Virus record (IMG/VR): IMGVR_UViG_2681813261_000026
DNA: 26,781 nt
Origin: a virus
Taxonomy: Duplodnaviria; Heunggongvirae; Uroviricota; Caudoviricetes
Direction: 5' to 3' (one strand)
Numbering within the stretch: position 1 is the stretch's first letter; each line of letters opens with the position of its first letter. Made by a program: the position numbers. Positions 6,001 through 9,000 of this stretch are shown here, piece by piece.

Positions 6001-9000
6001 GGTACTGGCGACCGTATCCCATGCGAGGAAATCCGGCCAGATGACCATCAGCTCACGCTGGCTGAAATTCTGACGGTAGGCTTTCACCTCGGAAACGGTC
6101 TTACAGCCCCATGCGCTGATATACCCGAAAGCGCGCAGCTTCTGACAGACTGATGCCAGTGCAACAGCCACCTCTTTGGTGTCCAGTCCCGGCACGCCGA
6201 GAATACGCGGTTTAACACCGGTTACCGACTCCGCCGCCAGCAGGGCTTTCAGTCCGGTGTACTGACCGTTTTCGTCGGTGGTGCCGATGATATTGGAAAC
6301 GGTCTGCGCGAGTTTCGTTTCCTCGTCGTCGCCGGTGCCGTCTTCCACACGCACGACAACGGTGACCGGTTTTGACTGGTCGGCGATGGCCTGCAACGAT
6401 GCCGCCAGCGTGCCTTTTTTACCGGCCTTTGCAATTGCGCTCTGCACATTGGTAATCAGCACCGGTTTATTGAGGGGGAAGGTTTCCGCATCCGCATCGC
6501 TGGCCGTGCAGACCATGCCGACAATGGCAGTGGATACGGTGGAAATGACGCGGGTGCCGTCGTTAATCTCCAGCACCTGCACGCCGTGATGATAGTCACT
6601 CATCCGTTTAACTCCGTGGTTAATGGGTGCAACTATTTTCTGTTGGGCAGTGCATGAGACGCTATTTGACCTGGCTGGTCAGTGGATGAAACAACAGATA
6701 AAGAAAATGCGGGCAATTCGCCCGCATGTCCTGATTTGTACACACTCATTTTCCGACTGACAGTTTACATAGCCCAAACGCTATCAAATCTGACAGCCTG
6801 CTATGAGCGAAAAGCGTTAAATCTCACGATATCTGCTACCGGGAAAAATTTCGATTATCTTCGATGGGAACTTTGATAATGTAGTAAATGCCATTTTCAG
6901 CGATCACTTTTCAAGCGTGTGTAAATGATTAATGTTAAAAAATTGACTTCACTGAAATAAGGTTGCTAGTATTTTTGGAGCAACCATTAATGTTTTTTAT
7001 TTAAGGAATGTAAATGACATACGCACTGATTGATAATTCAACTCTAACTGCAGTCCAAAGAATCGAGGGGAAAGTAAAAACAAGATCGAAGGACTCAGTA
7101 GATACAGACATAATAGCATTTGAGAACTATATACAGTCTATTTTGTTCTATGATCACGTTATCGCGGTTGATGATTATATTCCAGAGTACCGTGGGAGTA
7201 GGATTTCAAGTTTCAGAGAGATATTATTTCTTGATAAAGCACAATATGGGTTGGATGAAATTGAAAGTGAAGCAAAAAAAATATCTGATGCATTGAAACC
7301 TAAAATTCGTGGTGGAACATTTGTTAATGACGATTTTAAAAAACTAATTGAACTTCTTCAGACACATATCATATGTACATGGGACATTAGTTCAAGTGTT
7401 TATCATCTAACACTGAAGAACTTATCTGATGGAGGTAAGGAGTTTGAAAAATATGGTAACATTGCTGCTGCCATTTTTTCAGAACTGCGTGATGCTGCTG
7501 AGTCTGGTAATAGAACAAATGGCGATGTTGAACTTCTCGATCGATTTGGCAACCCTATTCGCAAGGGGTACAAAGTTCCCGGAGCAAAATGGGGGGATGG
7601 CACATCTGCTGGTGAAGCATCAGATGCAATCAAAGCATTCGTGGCTTCGCTTGTATGGCTGGCTAATCGGGCAGTATTTTATTCTCTCACAGCTAAGTAC
7701 CTTCAAGCAGATACTTTTTTATATCCATTACGTCAGGCGTATCAACAGACATATTTAAGCCAAAACTGTCAGTATGGTTTTGACTATGCTAAACATATTG
7801 TAGAAAACTTTTCCACTTCGTTAAGTCATGATCTCATTGATATTCATTCTGGTGGTAAAGCTGTAGCAACAGCAACTTCGCTTCCTTTATTTTCGGCATG
7901 GCTCGCAAAAGAAACTGGTGATCCAAGTTGTATTGTTGAAGCTGCTTATAACATAAGGGACAACAACGAATTTGTAAGGGCCCGTGAGAAAATGCGAGAA
8001 ATAAAGCGCTTGTTTGATGAAAATGAATTGCCTCAAGCTAATAAGTCAGTAAGAGCATTGCTTACTGAAGTATCGAAAGAATCAGATTATATTCGAACTA
8101 AGTATGGGCTCAAGACTAGACAAGGTGTACCTGTAACTAAGCTTGTACATGTATACAATACTGTTGCGGCTATTAATTCCCTTCCGAAACTACCGACCTT
8201 TAATTTTAAAGTTAAAGTTCCTGATTTCTTATATGATCTTAAAAAACCCAAGGGGTTTCGTGCTCTCTATCGAAATTTGACTAATGATCTTTCTACTGTG
8301 TGGTCGTTAGGAGAAGCTCGAGATATTCTTGGAAGTAAAGTTGTGATAGATAATCATGCAAGAATTTACAGTCCGAAGCATGAAGAACCGCGTTTCAAAA
8401 ACTCTCATTCCCCATATAAGAGCCCGATGTAGCTTAAGAAAAAGACACGCCCACCTTGTGCGTCTACTTCTGGCACAGAGCGGACTCTCAGATTAGGCTT
8501 TACTCTGTGCCATAGATATGTAAGCTCACACCAGAGCTCATACAACTTATTGCGGCATTTCCGGCCATTCAGGATTTGCAGGATCCACACGACTGACCAG
8601 AACACTGTAGCGTTCCCATGCCTCCAGTCGACTGCGCTCCTCATCTGTTGCCATATTCAGCCTGACAGCGCGCTCCAGCGGCAAAATCACGGATTCAGCA
8701 TCTGCAAGAAGTCTGGCTTTCCGATTTTCTGCCTGCTGCTGCAATTCCTCTGCCGTATAAATTCGTTTAATCACTGTACAGTCCTTAAACATCCAGTTCC
8801 CTGAAATGTCCGCCCGTCGGTTAGCAGTAATATCCGGCACTTCAACAACACTTAATCCATCCGGTCTGATAGCTGTCACATCCTTTTCCACATAGCGGAT
8901 AATATTATCTTTGTCGTACGCTATTTTTATCGTGTCATCAGCAAAATACTTTTGTTCTTCGTACCAGTTCTTACCATCTTCTGAAAAAAACCAGACAACA

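Follow-up and report, generated by a model that had tools for sequence, protein, structure and literature searches.

The window analyzed here is the whole 26,781-nt stretch of IMG/VR record IMGVR_UViG_2681813261_000026 (Caudoviricetes), which carries a P2-like prophage. Our subject is a 472-aa open reading frame (ORF), a candidate single-gene defence or exclusion gene, in the interval between the tail sheath gene FI and the tail-fibre assembly gene G. The ORF is confirmed at exactly the position given by the original prediction, 7014..8432 on the forward strand, opposite to the late operons. The locus contains the following features.

5413..6603, reverse strand: tail sheath gene FI, annotated as phage tail sheath protein; conserved left border of the hotspot
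6604..6816, no strand: P2 backbone intergenic region with the pF promoter region, outside the cargo; homology with P2 (NC_001895) runs from FI to about 6816
about 6817..8461, forward strand: cargo cassette (promoter and one gene) of about 1.65 kb, GC 37.3%, in place of the fun(Z) cassette of P2
6943..6972, forward strand: sigma-70-like promoter of the cargo gene (TTGACT, 18 nt, extended -10 TG-n-TAGTAT), a consensus match only
7003..7008, forward strand: ribosome-binding site AAGGAA, kept in homologous cassettes
7014..8432, forward strand: the 472-aa ORF (WP_000220361.1; PHROG 13435), with an ATG start and a soluble product of 53.3 kDa
7032..7175, forward strand: codons of a nearly invariant acidic cluster (D7, 7032-7034; D32, 7107-7109; E37, 7122-7124; D53-D54, 7170-7175)
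7434..8429, forward strand: family-specific C-terminal region, residues ~141-472, modelled as helices and a second sheet
8418..8429, forward strand: codons of the conserved extreme C-terminus K-S-P-M, invariant in 40 members
8472..8511, no strand: backbone hairpin GGCACAGAG-N22-CTCTGTGCC after G, common to P2; the homology break at about 8462 is just beside it
8547..9074, reverse strand: tail-fibre assembly gene G, by annotation and P2 alignment; conserved right border of the hotspot
9078..11393, reverse strand: tail-fibre gene H, by annotation

Alignment with P2 (NC_001895) shows that the G-FI interval is the site of fun(Z), which encodes 528 aa in the same orientation against the late genes. 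Homology breaks sharply at about 6816 on the FI side and about 8462 on the G side; hence, the cargo is a cassette of about 1.65 kb comprising a promoter and one gene. As P2 homology reaches about 6816, the pF region, together with a conserved terminator-like stem-loop at 6707-6727, belongs to the backbone. At the other end, the 106-nt stretch with the hairpin at 8472-8511 folds at -32.4 kcal/mol (z -2.3), and the hairpin may terminate transcription from both sides, that of G and that of the cargo gene. The predicted identity of the locus, the P2 Z/fun accessory hotspot, agrees both with the alignment and with published descriptions (PMC9519451; bioRxiv 10.1101/2024.10.15.618418). G-FI is the second P2 hotspot, with three validated PD defence systems (PMC9519451), and cloned P2 fun(Z) blocks the growth of T5 (note in the NC_001895 record); Z/fun is also a mixed-purpose locus that holds other cargo classes (bioRxiv 10.1101/2024.10.15.618418; PMC13586616).

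The product of the ORF has an isoelectric point of 8.6 and lacks a hydrophobic segment; a membrane protein is ruled out, the highest 19-residue hydropathy being 1.28. The GC content, estimated beforehand at 35-40% against a backbone above 50%, is 37.9% (27.1% at third codon positions) vs. 55.3% in the remaining window. Other segments of the same 1419-bp length have a mean GC of 55.6% (standard deviation 2.7, minimum 45.9%), the ORF lying about 6.5 standard deviations under the mean; the gene is thus AT-rich and foreign, as expected. Its start codon is supported by nearly all homologues, which begin with the same conserved residues M-T-Y-A-L-I-D-N, and the ratio of nonsynonymous to synonymous substitution rates (dN/dS), 0.13-0.17 against homologues at 89-90% identity, shows that the ORF is a genuine gene kept by selection and did not arise by chance. 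The promoter region is kept in homologous cassettes, and relatives at 89-90% identity in non-P2 contexts (L019-L021 and L028), both lambdoid-type and chromosomal, share the sequence that precedes the start codon as far as the cassette's left end. No ORF of at least 40 aa lies wholly inside this upstream region (6817-7013), and an Rfam search of the cassette for regulatory RNA yields only a chance microRNA match (E 0.14).

Two options had been left for the gene, an orthologue of Fun(Z) or a replacement cargo. Orthology is rejected by comparison with NP_046777 (BLASTP best E 0.12 over 20 residues; hhalign probability 0.8%), while the second option stands, since the cassette borders point to replacement of Fun(Z) and not to divergence. 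Both are single, large, AT-rich, non-essential genes without a Pfam domain that lie in the G-FI interval against the late operons, but they show no sequence or profile similarity and differ in length (472 vs. 528 aa), and the Fun(Z) phenotype (T5 block, sensitivity to fluorodeoxyuridine, FUdR) is not transferable to the cargo gene. The conserved P-x-I-[RK]-G-G at residues 96-101 (7299-7316) aligns with PSIKGG at residues 251-256 of Fun(Z), probably by chance (hhalign E 0.067, probability 0.8%).

The presence/absence polymorphism predicted for the FI-G interval is observed in E. coli: the cassette is carried by 7 of 5,426 complete genomes, at 99.6-100% identity, and its flanks are matched in 1,065, with different cargo where both flanks are seen. 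In other E. coli genomes, the site differs in interval size or annotation in at least eight ways, the alternative cargo including a 'lysogenic conversion protein', DUF4145, a SMEK-domain protein, a helix-turn-helix (HTH) protein with an acetyltransferase, and several hypothetical proteins. The defence system DS-27 carries the working name SMEK (PMC13092281), and is linked with the SMEK-domain cargo by name only.

Protein family and genomic contexts

In agreement with the expectation that the protein could not be placed in a named family, sensitive searches give a single library match, end to end, to PHROG 13435 ('unknown function'), which is the family's own unnamed cluster. RefSeq labels WP_000220361.1 a hypothetical protein, a literature search and the DefensePredictor supplements give no mention of the accession WP_000220361, and tblastn against 50,697 GenBank phage records gives no match. 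The family is carried by twelve IMG/VR contigs. A word-indexed search yields 282 relatives; among the best 120 of these, 117 are 464-503 aa long and three are shorter, the sources being Pantoea, Serratia, Pectobacterium, Acinetobacter, Halomonas, Vibrio, Psychrobacter, Desulfotalea, Citrifermentans, and metagenomes. When 1.84 billion representatives are searched exhaustively with a profile, 327 clusters at 50% identity come back, all from this family, with nearly all full-length members of 450-485 aa and no fused or shorter domain relatives. A scan of GTDB, with one genome per species, finds 38 loci, in Cyanobium, Verrucomicrobia, Chloroflexi, Abditibacteria, Bacteroidota, Clostridiales, Leptospirales, and many Proteobacteria, among others. 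The GC content of the gene is below that of its flanks in 25 of 26 loci. The gene represents a compact orphan family of fixed length, with wide but sparse spread and under purifying selection. Three of the 38 homologues are split into two ORFs each, in a Pantoea insect symbiont (L040 8001-9362), Pseudomonas sp. AKS31 (L050 8017-9404), and a metagenome-assembled genome of Leptospirales (L060 7932-9415); these are probably pseudogenes or sequencing frameshifts.

No neighbour of the gene is conserved: the 122 ORFs directly flanking it in 33 genomes contain each Pfam family three times at most. In Vibrio vulnificus, the gene is exactly one integron cassette (L013, ORF 8001-9419, attC-type repeats starting at 7846 and 9427); in Acinetobacter and Lonsdalea, it stands inserted on its own amid housekeeping genes; in Tenderia, it is flanked by insertion sequence (IS) elements. 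It adjoins ParDE in Halomonas, MksBEF in Desulfotalea, and a HEPN_Toprim/RiboL-PSP protein, TacA, and CcdAB in Pectobacterium, where one strain has also a CTD1/MComp1/SMC conflict system. Of the non-P2 relatives, one is located in a lambdoid-type region between a DnaC-like gene and DinI/DUF968, and another adjoins umuC. Hence, the distribution of the gene is shown to be solitary and mobile, without a partner gene. A toxin-antitoxin pair with a small upstream partner is rejected, as the upstream region has no ORF, the V. vulnificus cassette has a single one, and no partner recurs.

The V. vulnificus cassette, of 1,581 bp, lies among GNAT acetyltransferase and TacA cassettes in a chromosomal integron array with 15 attC-type repeats (TAACAA...; L013 7846-16500).

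Other neighbours match LmuB-like ATPases (3), SoFic (2), HamA, NsnA, a methyl-directed restriction enzyme (mREase), PD-T4-2_A, PD-Lambda-2_B, WYL, PDC-S04, PDC-S06, PDC-S24, Cap4 nuclease, and DUF4365 (2), these matches being supportive and not quantitative, as they lack a matched background control; the PADLOC single-model matches include generic ATPases. The solitary integron cassette, the defence and toxin-antitoxin neighbours, and the absence of a conserved partner strengthen, in our interpretation, the reading of the gene as a single-gene defence or exclusion system, and this horizontally acquired cassette gene probably has a defence role.

The same contexts might suit cargo of use to the host or to the element but with no action on incoming phages, such as a gene for lysogenic conversion or fitness, or a selfish stabiliser. 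Z/fun is mixed-purpose (bioRxiv 10.1101/2024.10.15.618418), an acetyltransferase with an HTH protein is found as cargo at G-FI, integron cassettes and islands hold many non-defence genes, and the protein itself matches no defence model; however, it has no secretion signal, membrane segment, or metabolic or virulence domain, the gene repeatedly adjoins defence and toxin-antitoxin genes, and conflict genes typically are, like this one, strictly conserved across phyla yet patchily distributed. The absence of an antitoxin partner speaks against the addiction-module variant. We regard a non-defence role as unlikely.

In two IMG/VR contigs (L026 4227-7401 and L027 3948-7410), homologues at 30-32% identity are located 38-41 nt behind a ResIII/DEAD helicase, in a phage replication/recombination block that also encodes a sliding clamp, a Cas4-like exonuclease, HNH, Gam, and a methylase; helicase and homologue could form a two-gene unit, or the place could be just one more moron site. 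The gene might then encode a nucleic-acid-processing protein that serves the mobile element, as an anti-defence factor or a replication/recombination accessory, and not host immunity, in line with this helicase linkage, the location of the L019 gene in a lambdoid replication/nin-type region, and the occurrence of the family in twelve viral contigs. In P2, however, the gene has its own promoter and runs counter to the lytic operons; most of its loci lie on chromosomes, within an integron or islands, and have no phage genes; phage early regions host morons too; and the helicase is linked only in L026 and L027, ResIII/DEAD being absent from the neighbour families listed for the 33 genomes. A conserved helicase partner is, hence, rejected, and a role in serving the element seems improbable.

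Conserved residues and predicted structure

Conservation was assessed in 78 members, down to 22% identity. Nearly invariant in the N-terminal part are D7, N8, T10, R16, G19, D32, E37, D47, D53, D54, Y55, R63, W123, S128, and L132; in the C-terminal part, R219, Y223, P238, R240, P291, R324, and G433, as well as K-x-P-M at the extreme C-terminus. In the acidic cluster, D32 is conserved in 100% of members, D7 in 97%, E37 in 96% (E or D in 100%), D54 in 96%, and D53 in 92%; at the C-terminus, P471 is conserved in 90%, M472 in 87%, and K469 in 83%.

The AlphaFold model built from 40 sequences has a mean predicted local distance difference test score (pLDDT) of 71, and that built from 78 diverse sequences has pLDDT 82 and predicted template modelling score (pTM) 0.86. 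In the second model, residues ~1-140 form an alpha/beta domain, and the remainder consists of long helices and a second sheet; K-S-P-M appears as a short strand, and the C-terminal segment that contains it has a mean pLDDT of ~92. Here, D7 comes directly after strand 1, D53 and D54 directly after strand 2, while D32 and E37 lie in helix 29-45. For the C-terminal ~330 residues, neither the structure nor the sequence gives a match. No Walker/P-loop motif is seen in the protein sequence. The HEPN motif R-x4-6-H is formally present as R460-x4-H465, and is rejected because R460 varies across the family.

Proposed function and likeness to known systems

The N-terminal domain may share the fold of the VapC/PIN ribonucleases (Pfam clan CL0280; e.g., 1w8i, 7by2, 4chg, 6a7v, 5wz4), from which it differs strongly in sequence (7-15% identity). 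The lead to PIN comes from a single method, at the level of fold, and gains support from where the nearly invariant acids are placed. A metal-dependent nuclease is the likeliest chemistry of the product, but is put forward with considerable doubt. Taken as a whole, the gene may, tentatively, encode a self-contained anti-phage protein of the exclusion or abortive-infection type that acts as an autoinhibited nuclease. Its own promoter and transcription against the lytic operons in P2 argue for lysogenic expression: the predicted sigma-70 promoter would drive the gene against silent late operons, and the protein would be present in the lysogen. It would be soluble and consist of two parts, an N-terminal PIN-like metal-dependent nuclease with the candidate site D7, D32, E37, D53, and D54, and the family-specific C-terminal ~330 residues. 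Autoinhibition and triggering are speculative; the C-terminal region might hold the nuclease off and sense infection, so that infection by another phage would release the nuclease, RNA or DNA would be cut, and phage growth would stop.

The closest functional parallel is DS-3 (WP_022645725.1, 340 aa), a validated one-protein PIN defence system without an antitoxin, for which mutants D7A and E42A are given in Table S11, mutation of catalytic residues abolished defence, and autoinhibition until infection is proposed by the authors (PMC13092281). Similar to DS-3, the cargo protein is a one-protein module without an antitoxin from E. coli accessory DNA, with a PIN-type domain (predicted in the cargo protein) starting from residue 1, Asp at position 7, and a large helical part after the N-terminal domain. 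It is, however, 130 residues longer, with a different C-terminal region; DS-3 is identified as PIN by HHpred (91%, supplement of PMC13092281), while the cargo family is not recognisable as such; and DS-3 is validated against T-even phages (PMC13092281), whereas the cargo protein is known from sequence alone. Compared with VapC, the cargo gene has no adjacent VapB-type antitoxin, its acids are spaced non-canonically, and the protein has an extension of ~330 residues; hidden Markov model, profile, and Foldseek comparisons give no support for the relationship. The cargo of P2 hotspots in general (old, tin, PD-T4/PD-lambda systems, DUF4238, DprA-PRTase; PMC9122126, PMC9519451) follows the same logic of swappable genes expressed in the lysogen, often single ones; the cargo gene has no homology to the validated examples (PADLOC-DB v2), and its family occurs also outside enterobacterial P2 phages, in Bacteroidota, Cyanobium, Chloroflexi, Verrucomicrobia, and Clostridiales.

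Several results weigh against the proposal of an autoinhibited anti-phage nuclease, in addition to the helicase linkage in L026/L027 and the uncontrolled, partly generic neighbour matches described above. Sequence and profile searches of Pfam, NCBIfam, and PDB with the 472-aa protein give no match, and none of the 5,027 models of PADLOC-DB v2.0.0 (a release that excludes systems described after 2023, of which DS-3 was compared separately) is matched at E<=1. No phenotype is on record for any family member. A Foldseek search of all PDB chains yields nothing significant (best E 0.05, generic Rossmann-type). By hhalign, the N-domain profile matches the VapC alignment with a probability of 0.24%, in a test made weak by the low diversity of the template, and the family matches the DS-3 sequence and a 22-member DS-3 alignment with probabilities of 0.2-0.3%, while DS-3 itself aligns with VapC at E 0.005 in the same set-up; therefore, the cargo gene may work like DS-3, but outside the DS-3 family. 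The spacing of the acids departs from the canonical D-E-D-D, D124 being only 74% conserved, and the metal site is a candidate, proposed from the placement of the acids after the strands and in the helix.

Part of these results might be explained if the N-terminal domain were not a nuclease and instead sensed a ligand or nucleotide through a Rossmann-like fold, leaving the effector activity, or a role confined to binding or blocking, to the C-terminal region. The Foldseek similarities, all non-significant, are generic Rossmann-type only (short-chain dehydrogenases/reductases, a Csm6 CARF-HEPN chain); there is no profile similarity to PIN, with no PIN family found in a Pfam scan of the 78 members at E<=10; in the model, strands 119-126 and 129-137 form a hairpin, unlike the canonical all-parallel PIN sheet; and the C-terminal part contains the conserved arginines R219, R240, and R324. 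The positions of the nearly invariant acids after strands 1 and 2 are those on which the nuclease proposal is based, and we consider the sensor variant quite unlikely.

The anti-phage nuclease proposal can be extended to an unlikely but far-reaching form, in which the gene would be the founding member of a new single-polypeptide immune family, with a cryptic diverged PIN-like nuclease, a novel-fold C-terminal inhibitor, and K-S-P-M-COOH as a plug or trigger sensor, spread as a minimal cassette via integrons, P2-like and lambdoid-type prophages, and defence islands in at least eight phyla.

The type and logic of the locus are already known, and numerous uncharacterised hotspot cargo genes of this kind have been described (PMC9519451, PMC13092281). 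Distinctive here are the fixed-length orphan family, its wide and sparse spread, the minimal cassette, the largely unmatched fold, the acidic cluster, and the conserved last residue. If the cassette protects, it would be a new one-gene system, so compact at 1.4 kb that it fits an integron cassette, and with a mostly unmatched fold, and the second P2 hotspot would share a gene pool with Vibrio integrons and distant phyla; the fixed length, the acidic cluster in the first 54 residues, and the conserved last residue provide handles for work on the mechanism. If it does not protect, the cassette would be a clean case of non-defence cargo at a defence hotspot, and a caution on guilt-by-location calls.

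The surrounding prophage

The prophage of E. coli 89-3156 is an intact version of the one in the window. Between the portal gene Q and the replication gene A, it carries an 'ATP-dependent nuclease' (L066 6182-7654; NZ_CP027366.1 2395781-2397253); the Q-A interval corresponds to the first P2 hotspot, where P2 itself has old/tin (PMC9519451). Hence, one prophage can hold both the present cargo, at Z/fun, and an ATP-dependent nuclease, at old/tin.

In the window, Q is shortened by an IS21-family element (ISSso4) at 22729-25367 (with 22031-22906 and 25351-26754), whose genes istB (22829-23827) and istA (23601-25268) are both on the reverse strand. The truncated Q is 291 aa long vs. the 1,035-bp (344-codon) portal gene of the intact relative, and a type VI secretion system vgrG-like gene comes after the IS21-family element. 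The prophage in the window thus stops after the truncated Q, being either a remnant or an assembly joint; the Q/IS21/vgrG junction is found in none of the complete E. coli genomes.

In the tail-fibre gene H, 3.5 in-frame copies of a 132-bp tandem repeat (89% identity) span 10392-10853 and encode units '...TAQDATTARKGLVQLSSATNS.SETLAATPKAVK.AYDLANGKY'. Tandem repeats of 23 nt and 47 nt at 25237-25360, at one end of the IS21-family element, are probably its multiple terminal repeats.

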